A stretch of DNA of 64,000 bases from a bacterium (GTDB taxonomy: Bacteria; Krumholzibacteriota; Krumholzibacteriia; G020349025), in the NCBI GenBank assembly GCA_031362565.1, contig JANLSU010000039.1:64001-128000 (forward strand). Direction: 5' to 3'. Under the pieces are notes generated by a model, which saw only the letters and a list, made by a program, of their open reading frames with translations, had not been told where the DNA came from and searched no databases. Positions 27,047 to 52,200 of the stretch are shown piece after piece. How positions within the stretch are numbered: position 1 is the first letter of the stretch; each line of letters begins with the position of its first letter. The position numbers and the translations under genes were made by a program.

Positions 27047-27700
27047 ATGTCAGTACGCATCGGTGACGAGGCGCCGGACTTCACGGCCGACACGACGGAA
27101 GGGCAGCTCCGTTTCCACGAGTGGATCGGCGACAAGTGGGCGATCCTGTTCTCGCATCCGAAGGATTTCACACCGGTGTGCACGACTGAACTCGGCTACA
27201 TGGCCGGCCTGAAGCCCGAGTTCGAGAAGCGCAACACCAAGGTCATCGGATTGTCCGTCGATCCGGTGACCGACCACCAGTCGTGGGTGAAGGACATTCA
27301 GGAGACACAGGGCCATGCCGTGAACTATCCGCTCATCGGCGACGCCGATCTCACGGTGGCGAAGCTCTACGACATGATTCACCCGAACGCCGCCGGCGGG
27401 AAGCGCACCGCGGTCGACAACATGACCGTGCGGTCGGTGTTCGTCGTGGGGCCCGACAAGAAGGTCAAGGCAATGCTCGTCTACCCGATGAGCACGGGCC
27501 GCAACTTCGACGAAGTCCTGCGGCTCCTCGACTCCTGCCAGCTGACCGCCAAGCACACGGTGGCGACACCAGTGAATTGGCAGCCGGGCCAAGACGTGAT
27601 CATCCCGACGTCGGTTTCCGACGAGGATGCCAAAAAGAAATACCCGCAGGGCTTCAAGACGCTCAAGCCCTATCTCCGGACGGTGGCCCAGCCGAAGTGA
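27047..27700 (+). CDS. 1-Cys peroxiredoxin (Prx6 family)
   Basis: Start MSVRIGDEAPDF after AAGGA; FSHPKDFTPVCTTE; YPMSTGRNFDE. Confidence 0.95.
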   Translation: MSVRIGDEAPDFTADTTEGQLRFHEWIGDKWAILFSHPKDFTPVCTTELGYMAGLKPEFEKRNTKVIGLSVDPVTDHQSWVKDIQETQGHAVNYPLIGDADLTVAKLYDMIHPNAAGGKRTAVDNMTVRSVFVVGPDKKVKAMLVYPMSTGRNFDEVLRLLDSCQLTAKHTVATPVNWQPGQDVIIPTSVSDEDAKKKYPQGFKTLKPYLRTVAQPK

Positions 27701-28593
27701 GGCGCAGCCGCTTGCTCGCCTTGCTGGCCACGCTCATCTCGAGCTGTGCCCCGGTCACTGCCGTCGGCGTGAAGTTTCTCTATCGCCGGGCCGACCTGCC
27801 ATCCGCGCAGGTCGTCCGGCACATCTGCTACGCGTCGACCGGGGCTCGCGCCAGCGACGCGCAGACGCTCGATCTATACCTGCCGCTGGGCAAGGGCTGG
27901 CCGGTCATCCTGTTCGTCCACGGGGGCAATTGGGATGCGGGCGATAAGCAACTCCGCGTCGGCGGCGCCGACGTCTACGCCAACATCGGCCGTTTCTTCG
28001 CGTCGCAGGGCATCGGCACCGCGGTGATCAACTACCGGCTGCAACCCACGACCGACTGGCGCGGCCAGGTGGACGACGTGCGGCAAGCCACGCTCTGGGT
28101 TCAGAACAACCTTCAGGCCCGCAGCGGCCGGCCCGAGGAACTCTTCCTGATGGGTCATTCCGCCGGCGCGCACCTGAGTTCGTTCGTAGCGCTCGGCGCG
28201 GCGGATTCACTGCACATTCGCGGCGTGATCGCGGTCAGCGGCGCCGCCCTGGACCTGACCGACCAACAAACCTACGACCTAGGCGAAGCCCCCGACTACT
28301 ACGCCAAACGCTTTCGGGCCAACGACCTCGCCGACCAGTGGAAAACCGTTGCGTCCCCCGTCCACTACGTGACACCCAACGCGCCGCCCTTCCTGATCGT
28401 CTACGCCGGCGGCGAAAAGAAAGCCCTTCAGCGCCAAGCCCGCTGCCTACAAAAGGCGCTCGACACTGCACACGTAGAAAACCAGCTCGTCGTCGTGCCC
28501 GGTGAAAGCCACACCCGCATAGTCCTCACCCTAAGCCGCCCCGATAAAACGTCAGCGCCGGCCATCCTCGATTTCATCCACAAGCACGTGTGA
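27697..28593 (+). CDS. Alpha/beta hydrolase (esterase-like) lipoprotein
   Basis: GTG overlapping the Prx stop (GTGA); lipobox-like LISS-C; HGGNW, INYRL and GHSAG nucleophile motif. Confidence 0.85.
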   Translation: MRRSRLLALLATLISSCAPVTAVGVKFLYRRADLPSAQVVRHICYASTGARASDAQTLDLYLPLGKGWPVILFVHGGNWDAGDKQLRVGGADVYANIGRFFASQGIGTAVINYRLQPTTDWRGQVDDVRQATLWVQNNLQARSGRPEELFLMGHSAGAHLSSFVALGAADSLHIRGVIAVSGAALDLTDQQTYDLGEAPDYYAKRFRANDLADQWKTVASPVHYVTPNAPPFLIVYAGGEKKALQRQARCLQKALDTAHVENQLVVVPGESHTRIVLTLSRPDKTSAPAILDFIHKHV

Positions 28594-28657
28594 AGCACCA
28601 GGCGCCGTCGAGCGTCGCAACCGCAGCGTGCTCCCGCCCCGCGCACGTGGTCCGGCG

Positions 28658-30646
28658 CTACCACACTTCGTGCGGCAACTGCACCGGCACGATAATGATG
28701 TCGAGCCCGCGGTACAGCAACCGCCGCTGCAGCGCAAACGCCACTTCATTGTGCAAGAGCCGCATGGTGAGCGTTTCCTGTGGGAAGACGACCTGTCCCG
28801 CCACAAAGACCGTCTGCGGCTGCTCGCTCGCGATCGTCGTCGCGAGCCGCTCCAGTTCCTGCACGACGTCCGTGCCCACCGCCCAGCGTGTCTCGACCTC
28901 GAGCCCCGCGCCGCGCGCCACACCTTCGTAGCGCTCCAGTTCCTTGCGCCGGGTGTCGTTCAACATTGCCAAGTGATTTTCGTCGCGGAATTGATCCGAG
29001 TCCACTTGGACGACGCTCAGGAAGATGACCTTTTGCAGGTCGCTCCCCATGAGGGCGCGCACCCGTCCGAGCGTGTGCAACCCGAGCCCGTCATAGCGGT
29101 TGACGAAAATCGCCGCAACACGTTCGCGACGCGGCTCGTCGCCGGAGTCGAGGGTGTTTTCGACGAGCAAATTCAGCATCGTGAGCGCGAACTGGAAGCG
29201 CCGGTAGTGGTGCCGCACCAGGAAGGCGACGCCCACCGTGCTCCCCGTCACCAAGACGGTGAGCCAGCCACCCTGGAAAAACTTCAGCGACACCGTGACG
29301 ATCAAGATGGCGAAGGAAATCAGCATGCCGGTGCCGTTCAGACAGAAGCGCCAGAGCCAGTCATGGACCCGGTGCCGTTCGATCCACCAATGCCGGACCA
29401 TGCCGAGTTGCGACAGCGTGAACGTCACGAAGACGTTGATGCTGTACATGATGACGAGCTGTTTGACCGACGCACGGGTGTAGAGCAGCGCGATCGCTGC
29501 GCCCACGCCCATGAGGATCACGCCGTTACCGGTGACGAGGCGGCTGCTCAGGTTGGCGAACCGGTTCGGCACCCAGCGATCGACGGCCATCGACGCCAAG
29601 ATGCGCGGCCCCCCCAGAAACCCGGTCTGCGCCGCCACGAAAAGCAGCGCGCCCTCCGACAAGAGCGTGAGGCCGATGAAAACGCTGCCGAGCTGCCAAC
29701 TGTTCGTATTCCAGCCGTCCGCGACCCGGTGCACCAGCGTCGCGTTCAAGGTGCGCCCCGGTTCGTGCGTCAGGTCGAAGAGCCGGTACGCGATGAGGAT
29801 CCCGGCGGCGGTGATCGCCAACGACACCGCCATGGCCAGCATGGTGCGCTTGCCGGTGCGAACCCGCGGCTCGCGCAGCACCGCCATGCCGTTCGAGACC
29901 GCTTCGATCCCGGTGTAGGTCCCGGCGCCGAGACTGTAGGCGCGCAGGAACAGAAAGACCGTCGCCCACAGGCCCATCGTCCGGATGCTCTCGGCCGTTC
30001 CCGAAACCGATTCACGGAATAGCGCCGGAACGCCGGTTGCATGCCCGCCGAGCGCCACCGAGATGAGGATCGCATGCGTCACGACAAAGATGACGAAGAT
30101 CGGCAGCAGAACGCGCACCGATTCCTTGACGCCGCGCAGATTCAGCATGATGAGCGCCGCAATCGACACCAAACAGATGATGGTCTTGTGCGGCGAGTCG
30201 GCGTGGGCCCCGAAAGAGAGCAACGCGTCGACGCCGCTCGCCACCGACACCGCGATGGTCAGCACATAGTCCACGACCAACGCACAGCCGCTGATGACGC
30301 CGGCGGTCGAATTGAGCAGCGTCGTGGCCACCACGTAGCCGCCGCCACCGCCCGGAAACGCCTCGATGATTTGCGAATAGCTGGCGGCAATCACCCCGAC
30401 CGTGAGCGCGGTGGCAAGGGCCAGAAAGAGCGCCAGATGATTGTGCCCATGCAAAGCGAGATAGGCTTCTTCGGGGCCGTAGCAGGACGACGACAGCCCG
30501 TCGCTCCCCAACCCGACCCAGGCGAAGAACGCCACGAGCGACATGCTGTGGAACACGCCGCGCTCGAGCGGGCTCTTCTCGCGGCCGAGGAGCACGCGCT
30601 CAGTGCGCCGGAACGCCGTGCGGACTCTTTGAGAAGGACTGGGCAT
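28658..30646 (-). CDS. APC-superfamily transporter, YdaO/KimA-like, with C-terminal cytoplasmic domain
   Basis: GLGSDGLSSSCYGPEE, FPGGGGGYVVA, YTGIEAVSNG, YSINVF; ATG coupled to the tldE stop (TGATG). Confidence 0.85.
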   Translation of the reverse strand: MPSPSQRVRTAFRRTERVLLGREKSPLERGVFHSMSLVAFFAWVGLGSDGLSSSCYGPEEAYLALHGHNHLALFLALATALTVGVIAASYSQIIEAFPGGGGGYVVATTLLNSTAGVISGCALVVDYVLTIAVSVASGVDALLSFGAHADSPHKTIICLVSIAALIMLNLRGVKESVRVLLPIFVIFVVTHAILISVALGGHATGVPALFRESVSGTAESIRTMGLWATVFLFLRAYSLGAGTYTGIEAVSNGMAVLREPRVRTGKRTMLAMAVSLAITAAGILIAYRLFDLTHEPGRTLNATLVHRVADGWNTNSWQLGSVFIGLTLLSEGALLFVAAQTGFLGGPRILASMAVDRWVPNRFANLSSRLVTGNGVILMGVGAAIALLYTRASVKQLVIMYSINVFVTFTLSQLGMVRHWWIERHRVHDWLWRFCLNGTGMLISFAILIVTVSLKFFQGGWLTVLVTGSTVGVAFLVRHHYRRFQFALTMLNLLVENTLDSGDEPRRERVAAIFVNRYDGLGLHTLGRVRALMGSDLQKVIFLSVVQVDSDQFRDENHLAMLNDTRRKELERYEGVARGAGLEVETRWAVGTDVVQELERLATTIASEQPQTVFVAGQVVFPQETLTMRLLHNEVAFALQRRLLYRGLDIIIVPVQLPHEVW

Positions 30647-38549: not shown

Positions 38550-39476
38550 TCAAGACAGTGAGATTCGATACTGTGCGGCGAGTTGCTGCAACTCGGCGGG
38601 CGGAATGTCGAGTTCCTGCGCGGCGCGAATGGCGTCGCCGGTATGCCGGCGGAGTGCCGCGCGCAGTGCCGACTCGGTGGCCTGGTCGCGGGCCATGGCG
38701 AGCGTCCGCGGCACTGCAGCGCCATCGATCCGCAAGTCCGCCGGACCGATCACATCCCCGGTGAGCAGCGCCGCGCCGCGGCGGATACAGTTTTCCAGCT
38801 CGCGAACATTGCCGGGCCATTCATGCCCTCGTACCACGGCACGCGCTGCGTCGGAGAGACGTAACGTGCGGCCGAGCTCGACACCACGCGCCGCCACGAA
38901 TGCATCCGTCAGCAGATCGAGGTCGCTGCCGCGCGCGCGGAGTGGTGGCAACATCAGCACGATTTCGTTGACGCGGTGATACAGGTCGCGGCGAAACGCG
39001 CCGCCCTCGACCATCCCGGGAAGGTCTTGATGCGTTGCAGCGATGAATCGCACCTCGATGGCGCGGTCGCGGGCACCGCCCAAGCGCTGCACCCGGCGGT
39101 CCTGTACGACGCGCAAGAGTTTGGACTGGACGGTGAGCGGCAGTTCGGCGATTTCATCCAGAAAGAGGCTGCCGCCGTCGGCCCGTTCGATCCATCCGGA
39201 GTGCGCCGCGACGGCGCCGGTGAAACTGCCCTTTTCGAATCCGAAGAGTTCCGACTCCACGAGATTGAGCGGCAAGGCGGCGCAGTTCACGGCAACGAAC
39301 GGACCCGCCGCACACGCACTGCGCCGGTGCAGGCTGCGGGCGACGAGTTCCTTGCCGGTGCCGGTTTCGCCACGCACGAGGATGGTGAGATTGGACGGCG
39401 CGACGCGGTCAATGGCGACGAATACGGCGCGCATCGCCGCACTGTCACCCAGCATGCCATCGAACGGCTCCGCCAT
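38550..39476 (-). CDS. Sigma-54-dependent activator (AAA+ and Fis-type HTH) lacking an N-terminal sensory domain
   Basis: Start [20 protein letters not shown] Walker [45 protein letters not shown]. Confidence 0.92.
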
Positions 39477-39546
39477 CGCCGCCCCCGGAATCGCGCCCCA
39501 CGTGTCGCCACGAGAGGCCGATCTTAGGGAGCGGTGGCGCCCAGCG

Positions 39547-41889
39547 TCAAGGCAGCGGATCGGGCGCGCCGAGGCTGTCGGCGTAGACCTGCGCGAGCAC
39601 CGCAACGTCGGTGCCCGGATAGCGCAACTGGACGGTCGACAAAAGTGCGACGGCGCGTGGTTTGTCGGCGAGTTGTTCGACCGCGACATGGGCGGCCAAC
39701 TCGAGCAATGACCCGGCGCGTGGATCGTTGCCGAAGGACGCCGAGACGCTATCGAGGAAGGCCACGCTGCGCTCCCAGTGCCCTTCGAGACCAAAGCATT
39801 CGCTCATGAAGCGCGCCGCGAGCAGGGCCGGACGCTCGGTGCCGAACTGCTGAATGACGCTCCGGTAGCCTTGCATCACTTCCGGCACCAGGGTGTGCGC
39901 CTCGTCGGCTTGGCCGTGTTCTCGCAGCATGCGAATTTCTTCGAGCGGCGCGACAAGTCCGGCGGCGGTCGCCGGATAGACGTCGCGAAGCTGCGCGTAC
40001 AGGCGCCGCGCGTCGCGAATATCGCCGCGCGCCACTTCGACGCGCGCCAGACCAAGCGTCGCTTCGGACCGGCCGGCCTCCGAGCGCGCCTCCGCCGCGG
40101 CGTGCGTGAACGCGTCGTCCGCCGCGTCGAGTTCCTGAGCGCGCATATGAATCTGCCCGGCCAAAAGCCATCCCAAGACCCGGTGCTGGTTGTCGAACGT
40201 GGCGCGTTCCGAACTCAAACCGGCCAAGATTCCCAGCGCATCCTTGTCGCGGCGCAGCCCACTCGCGAGCAAGCTGGCCTCCGCAACGAGCATCCCGCCG
40301 TCGTGACCTTCGGGGTCGTGGCGGGCGCGCAAGTCATGCAGTGCCGTGAAAGCGTCGTCCCAACGCCCGGCGCCGAGCAGCAGTGCGAACCGGGCCGTGC
40401 GTGCATCGCGCGCTTCTTCGCCGCGTTCGGCTGCCGCCTCGAGGGCCCGGGCGCCGCGCTCGACCCAGGCGGTGCGGGCCTGCTGATCACCGCGACCCTG
40501 AAACCGCTGCACGACATAGCCGGCGATTTCGACACCATTCGCGTGCAGCGGCCAGCGGCCGTCCTGCACGCCCCGCAACCACACCTCGTAAGCGGCGACC
40601 GCGTCGGGCCAATTGCCGTGGGCGTCGAGAACGCGGGCGAGTTCGAGTGCCGCGTCACCGCACACGCCGCGATAGGCGCAGTGGTCGATGAGGTCACTGA
40701 ACTCGGCACGGGCAACGTCCAAGCGCCCGGCGTGCGCATACGCGGCCGCCCGTCCCAGCAAGCCCTGGCACGCGAGCCGCGCGAGGTCGTGCTCCAAGCC
40801 TTCTGGAGCCCGCTTCGCACTCCGTTCGGCGCCAACGCGTTCGACGGCATCGCCATAGAGCTGGGCGACGCCAAGCCAGGCGAGCGTGTCGACCGGCGCC
40901 GCCGTTTCGAGGCCACCTTCGCGAAGCCGCGCGCGTTCGACGCACCGTTCGGCGTCGTAACGCAGCGTCAGGTTGCGGGCGTCACGCTCATGGGCGCAGC
41001 CGGCGCACGCGCCGAGCGCGACAACGACGAGCATCGTCGTGGCGACGCGCACCAACGGCGCTCCGGGCGCGGCTTTACGGCGCACCCGGGTTCGTACCGC
41101 GAAATAGGCCGACAGGCCGGCGGCCAGAAATCCGCCGACGACTTCCGCCGGCAACTGTCCGGCGAGGGCGGCGAGAATCCAGTCTGGATCCTGCGCCGCT
41201 CCGGCGCGAATGGCCGGCGTCCGCAGGATGATTCCCGGCACGTGCAAGATCGCAATCGCGACGACGGCGAGCGGCAGTGAAATCGGCAGATGCGCCACGA
41301 GAGCGACGCTCGCCCGCACCGCCTTCCAGGCTCCAATGTCGTAGAACACGACGAAGGCGGGAGCTGTGAACAGCAAGAGCGAGATGACGCCGCCGGCGAG
41401 CAACGCCACCAGAGCGGCTGATTCTGGGCTCGCCACCAACGCGGTCACGCGCAGCGCGAGTACCGGTACCGCGAGCAGTACCAACGCGAAGACGACGAGG
41501 GTCATTCCACGCCGGATGGCGCCGCGTACCGGTCCGAACAGCGGGACGGGTTGCCGGCCCCAAGCGGCGCCGAGGCGCCGCATCACCACCGCCTGCACGA
41601 ACACGCCAATGGTGACGAAACTCACGATGTCCATCGTTTGCGCGACGAGAGGCAGATGCAGCGGCAGGTCCGGATAGTGAACGTGGCGCACGAGCCCGGG
41701 AGCGATGGCCAGCGCTGGTACGAGCACGAACCATGGCACCCAGTCGAAACGCGCCACGAGCAGCAGCACGCAGCCCTTCAGCAGCGCGACGACGACGAAG
41801 GGCAGCCAGGCAAGCGGATCCAACACCTGGCCAGCTACGGCTCGCATCGCGCTCATGAACGGACGCAATGGATGCGAATGGAATCTCAT
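39547..41889 (-). CDS. Multi-TM membrane domain fused to TPR-repeat domain
   Basis: About 6-7 hydrophobic helices followed by an LGACAG-C-like segment and Ala/Leu-rich TPR-like helices (e.g. [15 protein letters not shown]); start ATG 41889 or 41857. Confidence 0.65.
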
Positions 41890-41900
41890 GCCCTTGCAAC

Positions 41901-41916
41901 AGCAAGGACCTTGCCA
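41901..41916 (-). promoter_or_regulatory. Putative sigma-54 promoter (leftward)
   Basis: Minus strand TGGCAAGGTCCTTGCT, close match to TGGCAC-N5-TTGC(A/T). Confidence 0.7.
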
Positions 41917-42008: not shown

Positions 42009-42024
42009 TGGCGCTTCCTTTGCA
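42009..42024 (+). promoter_or_regulatory. Putative sigma-54 promoter (rightward)
   Basis: TGGCGCTTCCTTTGCA = GG-N10-GC with TTGCA, 43 nt before GTG 42068. Confidence 0.65.
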
Positions 42025-42067: not shown

Positions 42068-42544
42068 GTGAATCCTCGTCTGCTTCTTGTCGGAGCTCTT
42101 GCAGTCGCGACCTGCGGGTTGGGCGTTCTGTTTGGACACCGCAACGCGGTCGCGTGGCAACGCGCCGGTGGACCGGCCCGCATCCCGGACGCGTGGCGCG
42201 GCGCGCCGTCCGAACCTGCCGCCTGGGTTTTCGTGCGCCCCGGGTGCCGCCATTGCGGCGATCACCTTCAAGCCCTCGAGCGCGCCGTTCAAACGCGCCC
42301 GGAATCGTTGCGCGCCGGCATTCTGGCGCGCATTCGCATCGTCGGTGCGGCCGCCGAACGGCCCGGCGGGAGCCTGGCGTTGCCTGATTCCCTGCGCCGC
42401 GTGTTCGACGTCCGGATCGCGCCGACCACGTGGTGGATCACCGGGGATGGCGTGATTCGGAGCGCGTGGCGTGGGGCCCGCGGCGCGGCGGCGTGGAACC
42501 GCGGCCTCGAATTCCTCGCCGCCCAGCCAGGGGTGACGCCATGA
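42068..42544 (+). CDS. Membrane-anchored thioredoxin-fold (redoxin) protein
   Basis: GTG 42068; N-terminal TM; VFVRPGCRHC (CXXC) and VRIAPTTWWITGDGVIR cis-Pro loop pattern. Confidence 0.75.
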   Translation: MNPRLLLVGALAVATCGLGVLFGHRNAVAWQRAGGPARIPDAWRGAPSEPAAWVFVRPGCRHCGDHLQALERAVQTRPESLRAGILARIRIVGAAAERPGGSLALPDSLRRVFDVRIAPTTWWITGDGVIRSAWRGARGAAAWNRGLEFLAAQPGVTP

Positions 42545-43131
42545 CGGCGCGGCGTTGGTTGTGTGCAGCCGCATGGTGTGCGGCAACATCGGCGCGGCAC
42601 ATCGCCGCGGTACCGGCGTCACACCTGTGGGCGCTGGACTTCGGCGCGCTCCAAGATCCGCACGCTTGGGTGGCGCTCGAGAGCTGGGGACCCGATTGCG
42701 CCTGGGTCGGTGCGGCACCGGGCGATCTCCAGCATGCGGTCGACGGCTGTGGACCGGCGGCCCTGGCGCTCCTGCTGCGCACCGCGGGCCGTCCGGTGCC
42801 GCAGGACGTGCTCTGGAGTGCGTGCCGGATGCGCGGCGGCGGCACCACACTCGGATGCCTGGCACGTGCGGCGCGGACTTTCGGTCTCCCGGTTCAAGTG
42901 CGGGTCGTGGCGGATTTTACGGCGCTTGAATTGCCGGCGATCGTGCATTTGCAACGCGGCCACTTCGTGCTGCTGGAGCGCTGCAACGCGGCCGTCGCCG
43001 AGATCACGGATCCGGCCTGCGGCCGGATCCGGGTGCGAGGTGCAACCCTCCGCCGCATGGCATCCGGTGCGGTTCTCGTCCGCGATGCCGCGACGCGTGG
43101 CGCGCCCCACTCCGCTGGAGGCCGGTCATGA
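42541..43131 (+). CDS. Stand-alone C39 cysteine peptidase
   Basis: ATGA-coupled; LQHAVDGCGPAAL (Q, Cys), GTTLGCLARAA, LPAIVH...GHFVLL (His), TDPACG (Asp); no ABC domain. Confidence 0.88.
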   Translation: MTARRWLCAAAWCAATSARHIAAVPASHLWALDFGALQDPHAWVALESWGPDCAWVGAAPGDLQHAVDGCGPAALALLLRTAGRPVPQDVLWSACRMRGGGTTLGCLARAARTFGLPVQVRVVADFTALELPAIVHLQRGHFVLLERCNAAVAEITDPACGRIRVRGATLRRMASGAVLVRDAATRGAPHSAGGRS

Positions 43132-43808
43132 GGCGCGGATGGCACGAACTCCTGCTCTGCACGCGAACAGTCGTCGCACCGGGTGAGATGTGGTCGGCAG
43201 TCGCCGTCGCGCCACGCACGACACTCGCGATCGCCTGCGTCGGCGGCCTCGAAGCACTGAATCTGGTGCTGCAGTCATGCGTTCTGTGGCCGGCATTCGC
43301 CGGCGACCCGTTGGTCTTCGATGCGCCGGGTGGAGCGCCCGCCGCGTTGCGGGCCTTCTGCGTCGCACGAGGTGCGGCGATCGCGCTGGCACCCGCGGCC
43401 GTCGCGGTGCGTGCGACGGCACTCGGGGTCCTGCTGTACGGCGCTTGTGGCCGGGGCGCGCGGCTGCCGCGGGTCGGCGTGCTCGTGGCTCTCGCCGCGT
43501 ACGCCGAGATCATCCCGTGGATCGAGAGTGCGGCCCTGACGATCGCGATCGCGATCGCCGCTCCACAGGACCTCGATGCGCTGCGCACCGTGCAGTTGCA
43601 CGCCGGCCTCGACCTCGTGTGGCCCTCAGCGTCCGCCGGGTGGGCACCATGGCTTGTTGCCGTGAATGCGTTCACCGCCTGGTGGGCGCTCGTCGTGGCT
43701 TGCGGGCTGGTGCGGATTGCCGGCTTATCGCGCCCGCGGGGCCTTGGCGTTGGACTCGTACTGGCAGCATCGCGCGTTGTGATCGACGTCGCGTCGACGC
43801 GATTTTGA
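43128..43808 (+). CDS. Yip1-like multi-pass membrane protein
   Basis: ATGA-coupled; VVAPGEMW start motif, about 5 TM, VNAFTAWWALVVACGLVRIAGLSRPRG C-terminal pattern. Confidence 0.65.
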   Translation: MRRGWHELLLCTRTVVAPGEMWSAVAVAPRTTLAIACVGGLEALNLVLQSCVLWPAFAGDPLVFDAPGGAPAALRAFCVARGAAIALAPAAVAVRATALGVLLYGACGRGARLPRVGVLVALAAYAEIIPWIESAALTIAIAIAAPQDLDALRTVQLHAGLDLVWPSASAGWAPWLVAVNAFTAWWALVVACGLVRIAGLSRPRGLGVGLVLAASRVVIDVASTRF

Positions 43809-43872
43809 GGCGCTGAATCGCCGTCGACCGAAGGAGCGAACCCCGATTGACTTCCCGAGAATTGGATCCGTC

Positions 43873-44211
43873 ATGTTTCGACACATCTGGAACGCCGGAC
43901 GCGTTTTGGCAGGCGCGGCCGCGGTGATCGTACTCTTCGTGCTGCCGGATTCACCGGCATTCACGCCAACGGCTGGCGCCGGCGTCGCCGTTTCGGTTCG
44001 AACCCCAGCGCCGGGCGACTCCAGTGTTTTGGACCCGGTGGCGTTGGCGAGCGACGCGTCCGGTGGGTGGAAGTTCCCATTGGGGCTAAGAGCCTGCGCA
44101 CTCTCGGTCGGAACCGCAATCGCGGGCCTGGCGTTCGTGCCGGTCGCGCCGCTCGGCGCGTTGAATGCATTCACGGCCGGCTTTCTGTCGATGTTGTACA
44201 CGTGTTCATGA
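43873..44211 (+). CDS. Putative bacteriocin/RiPP precursor 1 (signal peptide, GG leader, 47-aa core with 2 Cys)
   Basis: Hydrophobic N-terminus, LASDASGG|WKFPLGLRAC...LYTCS; directly downstream of the C39 and Yip1 genes. Confidence 0.65.
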   Translation: MFRHIWNAGRVLAGAAAVIVLFVLPDSPAFTPTAGAGVAVSVRTPAPGDSSVLDPVALASDASGGWKFPLGLRACALSVGTAIAGLAFVPVAPLGALNAFTAGFLSMLYTCS

Positions 44212-44250
44212 GCTCATTCCCCCGGCACTCTCCTGAAGGATCTTTGAATC

Positions 44251-44628
44251 ATGTGGAGCAAACAGATGTTCATCGCCGCCGCTCTCGTTGCGGCAACGAT
44301 CGCGCCGGCCGCACCGGCGCCGGCGGCGCAGCGCACGGCACCGGTTGCACCGGTGTTCGACGTGAGTTTCTCGACTTCGGTGGCGGCCGCACGGGCTTGT
44401 GACGTGGCGGACGCGTGGTCCCCGTTGGTGCAAACGGATGCCAACGCGGCCCGCGGCGCCGGGTTTCTCACGTGGTGGCGCGGCCACGGCAAGCAGATTG
44501 CCGAGGCCGTCGGATGCGCCGTCGACGGCGCCGCCATCGGCCGCATGCTGGCGATCGGCATGGCCGCCGCCGGCGGTCCTTGGGCGGCAGCCGGTTTGGC
44601 CGCTGCAGCGCTCGCGTGTCTCGGGTGA
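44251..44628 (+). CDS. Putative bacteriocin/RiPP precursor 2 (signal peptide, RGAG leader end, 54-aa core with 2 Cys)
   Basis: AAGGA RBS; Sec-like signal; LVQTDANAARGAG|FLTWW...GCAVDGAAIG...GGPWAAAG...ACLG. Confidence 0.68.
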   Translation: MWSKQMFIAAALVAATIAPAAPAPAAQRTAPVAPVFDVSFSTSVAAARACDVADAWSPLVQTDANAARGAGFLTWWRGHGKQIAEAVGCAVDGAAIGRMLAIGMAAAGGPWAAAGLAAAALACLG

Positions 44629-44638
44629 TGGTTGAGAG

Positions 44639-44678
44639 GGACGGAGCGCGCGGAGCAAAGCCGGCGCTCCGTCCGTTT
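44639..44678. terminator. Hairpin between convergent precursor 2 and tatA
   Basis: GGACGGAGCGC/GCGCTCCGTCC 11-bp inverted repeat followed by GTTT. Confidence 0.65.
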
Positions 44679-44977
44679 CATGGCGCTTCGGACGGCTTTT
44701 CGCGCGGCTGGGTATCTTGGATGTGCGGCGCCGGCGCGGGTGCGGCGGGCGGTGCAGCCGCCGCAGCTTGAGCCGCCGCCGGCTTCGGGGGGTCGTCGTC
44801 GTGCAGCCCAACGATTTTGTCCGCGTCCAACTCGTCGCGTAGTTCGCGCGATGCCTGGCGGAAGCGCTTGATCGTCCGCCCCAAGGACTCACCCACCTCG
44901 GGCAAGCGTTTCGGCCCTAGGAGCAAGAGCGCCAGGACCAGAATGATGAGCAGTTCGGAACTGCCGATGTTTCCCAT
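44678..44977 (-). CDS. tatA: Twin-arginine translocase TatA/TatB subunit
   Basis: MGNIGSSELLIILVLALLLLGPKRLPEVGESLGRTIKRFR. Confidence 0.9.
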   Translation of the reverse strand: MGNIGSSELLIILVLALLLLGPKRLPEVGESLGRTIKRFRQASRELRDELDADKIVGLHDDDPPKPAAAQAAAAAPPAAPAPAPHIQDTQPREKPSEAP

Positions 44978-49804: not shown

Positions 49805-51370
49805 TCAGTTTTCGAGCTTGATCACCCAAGGCGACGGATAGCGGGTGCGTTTCATTCCGTCCAGCTCCTCGATGATCGCGGGGATATCGGGCACGCTCGC
49901 CGCGCCGGTCGACCGTCCCCATGGCGCCACCGTGTAGTCCGAAATGTAGACCAGCCATTTCTTGTCGCGCTTGAAGCGTGGGAAGAGGTTGTGCGTCACC
50001 GGCGCCGCGTATGGCAACAGGCGCGTCAACGTGTTGTCGTCGATGTCGAGGAGGTACAGATTGACGCGGTTTTCGATCTGGGCTTGGAACGCCACCAGGG
50101 TATGCTCGCCCGTTTGCCAATAGACGGTCGGGCTCAGGATTCGCGCCAGGTCGCTGTCGGGCAGTGCGATGGCGCTGACCGCACCGGTCGCCGCGTCGAC
50201 CCAGGACAAACCGCCGCCGACCGCAACCACGATCCGAGTCCCGTCCGGATGCCAGTCGAATCCCGCCACGCCACCGGTGGTCGTGAGACGGTGGTAGTTC
50301 ACGAGCGTGTCCGAGCGCGCTTCGGGGTGGGTGTGGCGGTCGCGCAGGCTGCCGGTCCACAAATCGTTGCCGCCGACGTCGTGCGACACGTTGCTCAGGA
50401 AGCCGATGCGCGCGTCGCTGCCCGATGCAGTCGGATCCCAGCGCGGCTGGGAGAAGTTGAACGCATACCAAAGCGTGCTTCCAAACCGCGTAAACGTCGA
50501 ATCGAACGTCATCTGCCGCGGCTTGAACGTCGTGCCATCGAGCTGCGGACTGTGCACAACCCAAAGATTGAGCGGCGCGCCGCACGACCCGCCGTTCGGG
50601 CAACGCTCCGGGTACTGGTTGTCCATCCGTGACGCAAAGACGATTTCGGCGCGCTGGGTACTGGCGGGAGCGACATCCGGGAAAAGTTTTGGTGCCGTCG
50701 GGAAGTTGTTCCCGGGCGGGTCTTCGGACACCTGCAGGACTTGCTGCAGCGGGCTGTCCAACGCTCCGTCGAGCGGTGCGAAGGCGTGCAGATACAGAAG
50801 GTTCGTGTTGTTGGCGCTCGGGGCCTCCACGAAGAGGATCTCGTTGCCGAAGAAAGTCGGCGACTGTGTCGGATCGTCGGGCTCCGGGTCGGCCCATGGA
50901 ATGCGCGCGCTCTTCATCCAACGATTCTCGATGACCGCGAACCGCCGGGTGAAACTGCCGGTCTCCGCCCCATTGGTGCCGTCGGCCTTGATGTCGTAGA
51001 AACCAAGCGCCAGAGTCGAGGGCGCGGGAAGCTGCAATGCCACCGACGCGTCATGGATCGTCAAGGCCGCCGTCTTGGGAACGAGCGTACCCAAAGCGGC
51101 CGGGACCGTCCAATTGTAGACGGCACGCGTCGTACCGCCGGTGGCAAACGCGGTCAGGTAGTGCTGCGCGACCTGAGCCGAAGGCAAGCTGCCGGAAGGT
51201 GCCGGCCGCTCGATGGAAATCGGCCGCAGAAAAACGTCGAACACTTTGAACGGACCGCCGTTGGTGCCGCCGCCCCCTGGTGGCGGCGGTGTGATCGAGT
51301 CTTTGTTGCAACTCGACGCGCCCACAACCCCACAGAGCAGGAGCGCCGCAACGATGCGTCGAAGGTGCAT
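49805..51370 (-). CDS. Lipoprotein with TolB/PD40-like beta-propeller
   Basis: Start MHLRRIVAALLLCGVVGASS-C; QPRWDP, FDWHPDGTRIV, PRFKRDKKWLVYISD repeats. Confidence 0.7.
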   Translation of the reverse strand: MHLRRIVAALLLCGVVGASSCNKDSITPPPPGGGGTNGGPFKVFDVFLRPISIERPAPSGSLPSAQVAQHYLTAFATGGTTRAVYNWTVPAALGTLVPKTAALTIHDASVALQLPAPSTLALGFYDIKADGTNGAETGSFTRRFAVIENRWMKSARIPWADPEPDDPTQSPTFFGNEILFVEAPSANNTNLLYLHAFAPLDGALDSPLQQVLQVSEDPPGNNFPTAPKLFPDVAPASTQRAEIVFASRMDNQYPERCPNGGSCGAPLNLWVVHSPQLDGTTFKPRQMTFDSTFTRFGSTLWYAFNFSQPRWDPTASGSDARIGFLSNVSHDVGGNDLWTGSLRDRHTHPEARSDTLVNYHRLTTTGGVAGFDWHPDGTRIVVAVGGGLSWVDAATGAVSAIALPDSDLARILSPTVYWQTGEHTLVAFQAQIENRVNLYLLDIDDNTLTRLLPYAAPVTHNLFPRFKRDKKWLVYISDYTVAPWGRSTGAASVPDIPAIIEELDGMKRTRYPSPWVIKLEN

Positions 51371-51420
51371 CACGATCGTCGGGCCTCCAAGGGCCAACCG
51401 CCGGCGGCACGCGCCGCGGG

Positions 51421-52200
51421 TCAGCGATACAGGGTCTTGATCTGCGACCATCGCATTTGCTGTTTCGAGGGCAGCACGCTCGAGAACGGCGTGAACTCCC
51501 AATCCAGTTTGGTCTGGCTCGGATCGGGCCGGTACCACAGCTCGCCGGCGTCGCGCGTCATGTAATCGCAGAACGGATGATCGTTCGCATCCGAATCGGC
51601 CTTGACGCCGGTAAAGTCAGTGTCGAGCGGATCGGAGAACTGCAGGATGAGCCAGGCCGCCTGGTCGCTTTCCAACACCAGGTTGTCGCCGGCGAGGTCG
51701 ACACAGGTCGGCTCACCGGCCGCGGCCGGGATCAAGAGGTGGCGCAGCGCCCGGAGATCCGAAGTGGCGGGCAATACCGGCGCGTCACGCCTCGTCACAA
51801 CAGCGCCGGCGGCGGCGTACGTGACCGCACGGTTGCTGATGAACGAGAAACTCACGAGTCGCGTCCGCACCGCGCCCGGCTCGAAATACTTCACGATGTA
51901 GTGGGTGAGCCTCGGAGTCTGCAGGCGGTCGAAAAACGACCCGACATTGATATAGCGCGAGGCGCCTGCCTCATAGCAACTGTCGGCGACCCCGACAGCG
52001 CATTCGGCGCGCCGGGCGGACGGCGTGGCAGCAGGAGCCGGGATACCGCTGCCGCCGACCATCGGCGTCGCGGCCGCGAGCGCCGCAATGCCACTCTGGC
52101 CGCTACGGCTCGATGCGGCACGCGCCAGCCCCGGGACGAGGAGCGCGGCTGCGATCAGACATCGAAAGGAGGCACGAAAGCCCGTGGAAGTCGAAATCAT
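51421..52200 (-). CDS. Exported hypothetical protein with C-terminal W-x-x-IK-x-LYR motif
   Basis: Signal peptide (LIAAALLVPGLARA); ends SVLPSKQQMRWSQIKTLYR. Confidence 0.7.
   Translation of the reverse strand: MISTSTGFRASFRCLIAAALLVPGLARAASSRSGQSGIAALAAATPMVGGSGIPAPAATPSARRAECAVGVADSCYEAGASRYINVGSFFDRLQTPRLTHYIVKYFEPGAVRTRLVSFSFISNRAVTYAAAGAVVTRRDAPVLPATSDLRALRHLLIPAAAGEPTCVDLAGDNLVLESDQAAWLILQFSDPLDTDFTGVKADSDANDHPFCDYMTRDAGELWYRPDPSQTKLDWEFTPFSSVLPSKQQMRWSQIKTLYR

Follow-up and report, generated by a model that had tools for sequence, protein, structure and literature searches.

A redoxin, C39 peptidase and Yip1 operon of Krumholzibacteriota predicted to make exported, disulfide-closed hairpin peptides

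Several described systems combine parts which also occur in the locus treated here, a five-gene operon at 42068..44628 of a stretch of 64,000 nucleotides (the window; positions 64,001 to 128,000 of contig JANLSU010000039.1, assembly GCA_031362565.1) from a bacterium of the phylum Krumholzibacteriota. The sdpABC system of Bacillus subtilis makes SDP, a peptide of 42 residues with one disulfide which is processed after export; its precursor consists of a secretion signal, a pro-region and a C-terminal hydrophobic core, and the Yip1 protein YknW takes part in protection (PMC6818787, PMC4887032). In sequence, the precursors of the operon have a comparable layout, with a putative signal, a core of similar size and a predicted disulfide, and a Yip1 gene is present as well. 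The class II bacteriocin cluster of thermophilin 13, in which the C39 domain is fused to an ATP-binding cassette (ABC) exporter, combines a double glycine (GG), an intact C39 domain, tandem hydrophobic cores rich in Gly and Ala and a linked oxidoreductase, and its peptide ThmA has Cys6 and Cys53 near the ends (PMC10059821); all these traits have counterparts here, including the position of the cysteines. FapD of Pseudomonas is a free C39 peptidase whose targets are exported proteins and which works on them outside the cytoplasm, its catalytic Cys being required (PMC5557850), and a similar location is predicted for the C39 peptidase of the operon. Finally, in the PA2778/PA2779 pair an exported C39-like peptidase stands next to a small protein that has a signal, a GG and a tail of hydrophobic residues.

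The five genes follow each other on the + strand, as a first-pass annotation of the window had described them. The enzyme genes are coupled, with ATGA overlaps at the redoxin/C39 and C39/Yip1 junctions; the next intergenic gaps comprise 64 and 39 bases. The features are:

42068..42544, + strand: redoxin, a probable membrane-anchored thioredoxin-fold thiol-disulfide oxidoreductase with the motif CRHC (from the alignment of CxxC and cis-Pro and the predicted fold)
42541..43131, + strand: free-standing C39 cysteine peptidase with a signal-like N-terminus (from PF03412, the catalytic residues and the tree)
43128..43808, + strand: membrane protein of the Yip1 family, with immunity or handling as candidate roles (from the PF04893 match of its orthologs)
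43873..44211, + strand: precursor A, with signal-like segment, pro-region, GG (44062-44067) and a predicted 47-residue core with Cys10 and Cys46
44251..44628, + strand: precursor B, with signal-like segment, pro-region, GAG (44455-44463) and a predicted 54-residue core with Cys18 and Cys52

The source genome of the window, G000, is rated 100% complete. It was compared with G001, G005 and G006, which belong to one other genus of the same family, and with the remaining three members of that family, G002, G003 and G004. The redoxin-C39-Yip1-peptide order noticed by the first-pass annotation recurs at the same site in G001, G005 and G006, where all five genes are found and a third precursor, C, is added. 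In profile searches only the C39 peptidase fitted a Pfam or NCBIfam family; the other four proteins fitted none.

We propose, with a probability of about 0.52, that the operon makes two disulfide-closed hydrophobic hairpins which are exported by Sec, cut by C39 and closed by the redoxin, and which are probably antibacterial, Yip1 being the likely protective protein. The results support the course inferred in the first-pass annotation, Sec export followed by cleavage and disulfide formation beyond the cytoplasm. According to the proposal, the precursors, the C39 peptidase and the redoxin would enter the Sec pathway as pre-proteins or pre-pro-proteins, and signal peptidase would remove the signal. 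With the signal oriented inward, the pro-region, the GG site and both cysteines would then be found at the outer surface of the inner membrane, beside both enzymes. There the co-exported free C39 peptidase would cut after GG or G-x-G, and the membrane-anchored redoxin would close or reshuffle one end-to-end disulfide. Membranes would be the target of the hairpins, which would probably work as a bacteriocin of two or three parts, and Yip1 would protect against them or handle them. The steps differ in strength. Judged from the sequences, export of the precursors and of the redoxin is very probable, and export of the C39 peptidase with cleavage at GG is predicted almost as firmly. It is likely that the redoxin makes or shuffles the end-to-end disulfide; joint action of A and B (with C as well in the relatives) as antibacterial agents is slightly favoured, and for Yip1 as an immunity protein the odds appear even.

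Precursor A has GG at residues 64-65, and this site and both cysteines are invariant in all 15 rows of the alignment, some of which are near-duplicates; elsewhere in the pro-regions of the A family GG accounts for only 5 of 349 dipeptides. Precursor B has GAG at residues 69-71, with G-x-G in 11 of 12 rows and WW and both cysteines in all 12. Conservation of the two small open reading frames and of their putative cleavage site, on which the first-pass annotation had made its proposal of a new bacteriocin system depend, was thus found in both cases. The stretch before the site, which contains the signal-like segment, comprises 37-79 residues in the A and B rows, and the cores 43-54 residues. The cysteine pair encloses 35-39 residues, forming a predicted ring with two hydrophobic halves which is uncharged in 25 of 26 cores; the best 19-mers of the cores reach Kyte-Doolittle (KD) values of 1.5-2.2. 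Mean identity is 0.57 in the core versus 0.29 before the site for A, and 0.67 versus 0.24 for B. Ratios of nonsynonymous to synonymous substitution rates (dN/dS), computed for the single pair G001 and G006 and from few codons, were 0.21, 0.12 and 0.30 for the cores of A, B and C and 0.46, 0.98 and 0.51 for the stretches before the site. By these comparisons the cores are under purifying selection while the pro-regions drift. The cores of the window are divergent types within the A and B families, and no homology between A and B was detectable (probability 1.2%). For precursor B, AlphaFold gave a model of low confidence (predicted local distance difference test score, pLDDT, 63.6; predicted template modelling score 0.27), which was not used for a fold search; Atlas searches gave no usable match. 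The coordinates of precursor C in the relatives are:

L013, 6118-6417: precursor C
L012, 6163-6480: precursor C
L014, 3955-4263: precursor C

All three copies of precursor C have a 36-residue ring and a twin-arginine-like start.

The C39 peptidase of the window has 196 residues and matches PF03412 with E 1.7e-14 (54.3 bits versus a cut-off of 22). Its Q64, C70, H141 and D157, i.e., the oxyanion Gln and the catalytic Cys, His and Asp, which the first-pass annotation had regarded as intact, are invariant in 22 of 22 C39 rows; these rows comprise 21 of the 22 strong metagenomic matches, one fragment being left out, and the copy of G005. An unrooted tree was computed for 45 domains other than FapD, two rows having been dropped; in this tree the 18 free C39 rows form one clade (support 100/99) among ABC-fused C39 domains. 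Against NCBIfam the peptidase scored E 3.1e-14 with TIGR03796 (ABC-type C39) and E 0.056 with FapD (NF058616; 12.7 bits versus a cut-off of 330), and the window proteins gave no match to PA2778 (NF033920) or PA2779 (NF033919). The position of the clade and the much better score with TIGR03796 than with FapD suggest a separate escape from ABC fusion.

Within the 64 kb of the window, no ABC ATPase was detected by a crude scan for motifs, and no C39-ABC fusion was found genome-wide in G000, G001, G005 or G006, in agreement with the earlier remark that the locus has no ABC exporter. The free C39 is the only C39 domain of G001, G005 and G006. G000 holds two C39 domains; the second is likewise not fused to an ABC protein, is PA2778-like, and stands elsewhere in the tree on a long branch. 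Export in trans by this second C39 was considered and rejected, as it is a PA2778-like protein. It is encoded at L011 (contig C93 of G000, 27424-29840), where a PA2779-like protein with signal, GG and hydrophobic tail is coupled to a PA2778-like C39 protein of 677 residues, extended by a tetratricopeptide repeat (TPR) part and a probable outer-membrane barrel region.

Signals were evaluated with a heuristic, which asks for an uncharged hydrophobic 10-mer following a net-positive start; five truncated or extended rows were left out. Signal-like N-termini were present in 27 of 27 redoxins, 16 of 19 C39 peptidases, 14 of 14 precursors A and 12 of 12 precursors B; in the precursors of the window, such segments had been seen by the first-pass annotation. 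The stretch upstream of ABC-fused C39 domains was signal-like in 2 of 16 cases. Few rows have a twin-arginine motif (A, 2/14; B, 0/12; C39, 2/19), for which reason the Sec pathway is preferred to the twin-arginine translocation (Tat) pathway. Export by Tat via the adjacent tatA-like gene was also considered and rejected on the same ground; in addition, this gene is convergent with the operon and is kept in G004, which has no operon.

The names redoxin and Yip1, given by the first-pass annotation, could not be supported by Pfam for the copies of the window, the redoxin fitting no family and the Yip1 copy giving no match, and stand by way of a predicted fold and of orthologs, respectively. The AlphaFold model of the redoxin (pLDDT 92) has an N-terminal helix at residues 3-33, and its best fold match was ResA (Z 11.9, root mean square deviation 2.7, 113 aligned residues); the other top folds were CcmG, SdbA and a secreted oxidoreductase of Mycobacterium tuberculosis, with Z values of 10.3-11.9 for the top four. 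By its model, the redoxin resembles the extracytoplasmic proteins ResA, CcmG and SdbA. CxxC and the cis-Pro position are invariant in 29 of 29 redoxin rows (26 of 36 metagenomic matches were used, fragments and weak matches being left out), and 21 of the 29 have CxHC, which we take to be a DsbA/PDI-like motif. The orthologs of the Yip1 protein, which are 31-35% identical to it, match PF04893 with E 1.7e-12, 2e-10 and 5.9e-6, two of the three above the cut-off, and the copy of the window aligns with them over its length; they also match YknW_fam weakly (E 2.1e-5, below the cut-off). In clusters for leaderless and for circular bacteriocins, Yip1 genes are found repeatedly (PMC11580447, PMC8659200).

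Three further features concern expression of the operon:

42009..42024, + strand: sigma-54-type -24/-12 promoter before the operon, 44 bases 5' of the redoxin start
38550..39476, - strand: sigma-54 activator with AAA+ and helix-turn-helix domains only, candidate regulator (PF00158 from residue 9)
44633..44680, no strand assigned: inverted repeat with 17-nucleotide arms (88% complementary), probable terminator, located past the end of precursor B and before the tatA-like gene, which is convergent

In all five aligned upstream regions of the operon TGG and TTGC are invariant, at fixed spacing; the strict sigma-54 pattern has 56 matches on both strands of 5.4 Mb, and a sigma-54 gene is present in G000. 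The activator has no input domain and is directly divergent from the redoxin gene in G001, G005, G006 and G003. A pair of sigma-70-like -35/-10 elements at 39521-39550 (-) overlaps the stop codon of a TPR gene just upstream of the activator, and the same pair precedes the activator in G001, G003, G004, G005 and G006. The terminator scan did not call the inverted repeat.

The distribution of the operon is narrow. Close orthologs of the C39 peptidase, the redoxin and precursor A were found in 4 of 208 genomes of the phylum. The C39 profile had any match in 25 of these genomes, four of them below E 1e-80; the redoxin profile matched in 61, with four below 1e-43, and precursor A in four. The 57 weaker redoxin matches (E 7.8e-7 or worse) look like unrelated redoxins, except for a remnant in G003, the sole one inspected. 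In this genome (L077, 9634-10860) the operon is decayed: the promoter is intact, redoxin and Yip1 are broken, C39 and precursor A are absent, and precursor B is nearly intact, minus its last Cys. G002, a genome 71% complete, retains the end of Yip1 and a leader resembling that of B, with the core lost right after the site, where the contig stops. In G004, tatA is followed directly by the activator. The parts of the operon decay together in G003 and G002, a point in favour of the proposal.

Metagenomic homologs comprise 34 C39 matches (22 below E 1e-38), 36 redoxin matches at 50% clustering and, queries included, 14 of A and 12 of B. Five metagenomic pairs of A and B have an identical size of the longest contig, which suggests linkage; the metagenome loci L044-L046 closely resemble those of the relatives and were not counted as independent. 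A search of plasmids yielded nothing but three NHLP ABC transporters. The Gemmatimonadaceae locus L049 was rejected as an instance of the same system, its C39 being ABC-fused; it is a lantibiotic-dehydratase-like locus in which an HlyD and an ABC transporter are accompanied by a C39-ABC fusion as a separate protein. Five genomes of genus g64 (L034-L036, L038 and L039) contain short free C39-like open reading frames with no signal, several of which lack the catalytic Cys and His.

Several observations weigh against the proposal. The putative cleavage site is not universal, as row P0087 of B (1 of 12) has no G-x-G and one of three precursors C no clear GG. The signal heuristic also passes 3 of 12 cytoplasmic controls, and the C39 signal of the window itself is weak (KD 1.62). 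Searches of G000 found DsbD but neither DsbB nor VKOR, and the closest folds of the redoxin include reductases; the redoxin could for these reasons reduce rather than oxidise. No outer-membrane channel or exporter was found in the locus, and the host is presumably two-membraned; how a very hydrophobic peptide would leave such a cell had not been addressed by the first-pass annotation, nor had the gap left by DsbB and VKOR. Given their hydrophobicity, the cores could stay in the inner membrane of the producer. None matches a bacteriocin family of Pfam or NCBIfam (15 A and 12 B rows, E up to 5), and for the N-terminal tail of core B shuffling showed no significant amphipathicity (p 0.12-0.73). 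Since the activator outlives the operon in G004, its link to the operon is likely and not firmer than that; as a candidate regulator it would be older than the operon or outlive it.

Some of these points lead to the main rival explanation, which we consider unlikely, though worth keeping in view: export, cleavage and disulfide would be as proposed, but the hairpins would remain in the inner membrane of the producer, where A and B (and C) would form a small complex or pore for envelope stress, dormancy or self-lysis under a sensor-less sigma-54 activator. Uncharged rings with two hydrophobic halves, the strong conservation of the cores within each type and the missing outer-membrane exit are all compatible with it, as is the sigma-54 promoter together with an activator lacking an input domain, an architecture which we take to be that of PspF; a PspA-family gene is present elsewhere in G000. 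However, the tail of core B, rich in K and R, would face outward, which under the positive-inside rule is unusual for an inner-membrane resident, and patchy presence, decay and divergent core types fit genes of competition. The association of Yip1 with bacteriocin clusters in the cited papers (PMC11580447, PMC8659200) points the same way. The peptides could also be exported and matured as proposed and yet be non-toxic subunits of a surface structure or fibre, or signals, as has been suggested for substrates of FapD-like and PA2778-like C39 proteins. FapD, the one characterised periplasmic C39, serves amyloid secretion (PMC5557850), and the PA2779-like and PA2778-like pair of G000 likewise shows signal, GG and hydrophobic tail; but the locus has no beta-barrel, receptor kinase or repeat-rich subunit, the peptidase scores with TIGR03796 rather than with FapD or PA2778, and the cores are short, hydrophobic and, in a model of low confidence, helical. 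This explanation is improbable.

Just as improbable is a further explanation, in which the N-terminal segments would be leaders of the ordinary kind or anchors that are not cleaved. The C39 peptidase would then be cytoplasmic or have other targets, and the precursors would be small membrane proteins of three helices or would depend for export on a transporter encoded elsewhere. The false positives of the heuristic and the three of 19 C39 rows which fail it leave room for such a view, against which stand the invariant GG beside an intact peptidase of the GG-cleaving type, pro-regions drifting (dN/dS 0.46-0.98) next to constrained cores, and invariant cysteine pairs with a ResA-like partner. Head-to-tail circular bacteriocins are very improbable. 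Yip1 does occur in clusters of circular bacteriocins (PMC8659200), and among the named Atlas clusters the one nearest to precursor B belongs to cyclic bacteriocins of class IIc, at only 0.76 and a lead at best; but the SpoIIM/DUF95 and transporter genes which define such clusters according to that paper (PMC8659200) are not among the genes of the locus, and the terminal cysteines and the redoxin point to closure by a disulfide.

The operon is flanked on one side by a TPR membrane protein and the sigma-54 activator, and on the other by tatA, LytR_C, HIT, a nucleotidyltransferase and panC/panB. The TPR gene (39547-41889, - strand) stands between activator and operon in G000 only, and has its own sigma-54 motif (41901-41916, - strand), which results in two divergent sigma-54 motifs 93 bases apart in G000. 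It was rejected as a member of the operon, since the relatives have no TPR gene at this site and only distant matches elsewhere; near the distant match of G005 lies a second, similar sigma-54 activator (L079, contig C124, 10654-11577). Two other signal-bearing proteins of the window, at 49805-51538 (-) and 51421-52200 (-), fit no Pfam family.

Peptidase and GG-bearing substrates are conserved together, and cleavage should be directly testable; the FapD paper had no defined substrate (PMC5557850). The export-first route, Sec followed by a small soluble C39, could be a simple way of activating toxic peptides once they have left the cytoplasm. Should killing of bacteria by the cores be confirmed, these would represent three new families of unmodified, synthesisable peptides of 44-54 residues, from a family without cultured models, and mining based on exporters or on families would likely miss such a cluster. 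Somewhat short of even odds, in our estimate, is a wider reading, an undescribed bacteriocin route: a C39 peptidase freed from the ABC exporter would have gained a signal and would activate multi-component, disulfide-locked hairpin toxins in the periplasm, an oxidase of its own would replace the missing DsbB or VKOR, and release would occur by vesicles or cell contact. If this is true, the operon would be the first case of a periplasmic C39 for which a GG substrate is defined, and its products would be the first antibacterial peptides of this uncultured phylum.

Compared with the systems named at the outset, the operon shows a mixture of their traits. By analogy, SDP would appear to be its closest working counterpart. 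However, no match to the SdpA/SdpB, SdpI or SdpC families was found here, processing at GG by C39 is predicted, two or three different cores are present, and the host is predicted to be two-membraned; YknW works with the YknXYZ pump, which is absent from this locus. From class II clusters, thermophilin 13 included, the operon differs by a free, signal-bearing C39, C39-ABC exporters being absent from all four genomes, by leaders which bear signal-like segments instead of being short and hydrophilic, and by the lack of a sequence match to a bacteriocin family; expression would start from a sigma-54 promoter, in contrast to the peptide-pheromone system of thermophilin 13. Unlike the locus of FapD, whose target was unclear in the paper on it (PMC5557850), the operon has no FapF-like barrel, and its putative substrates have an invariant GG. 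Compared with PA2778/PA2779, there are no TPR or barrel domains, the substrates have two cysteines, and redoxin and Yip1 are partners. As to the novelty claimed by the first-pass annotation, no description of this cluster was found in a title and abstract search of the literature, including one for C39 peptidase, Yip1 and bacteriocin together, with supplements and most subscription papers outside its coverage; the claim is tempered since a periplasmic free C39 (FapD, PMC5557850) and the SdpC-type layout of signal, pro-region and hydrophobic core (PMC6818787) are known. Taken together, the operon is real, conserved and coherent, with a predicted function that would make it a variant, of narrow distribution, of a known peptide-toxin logic.

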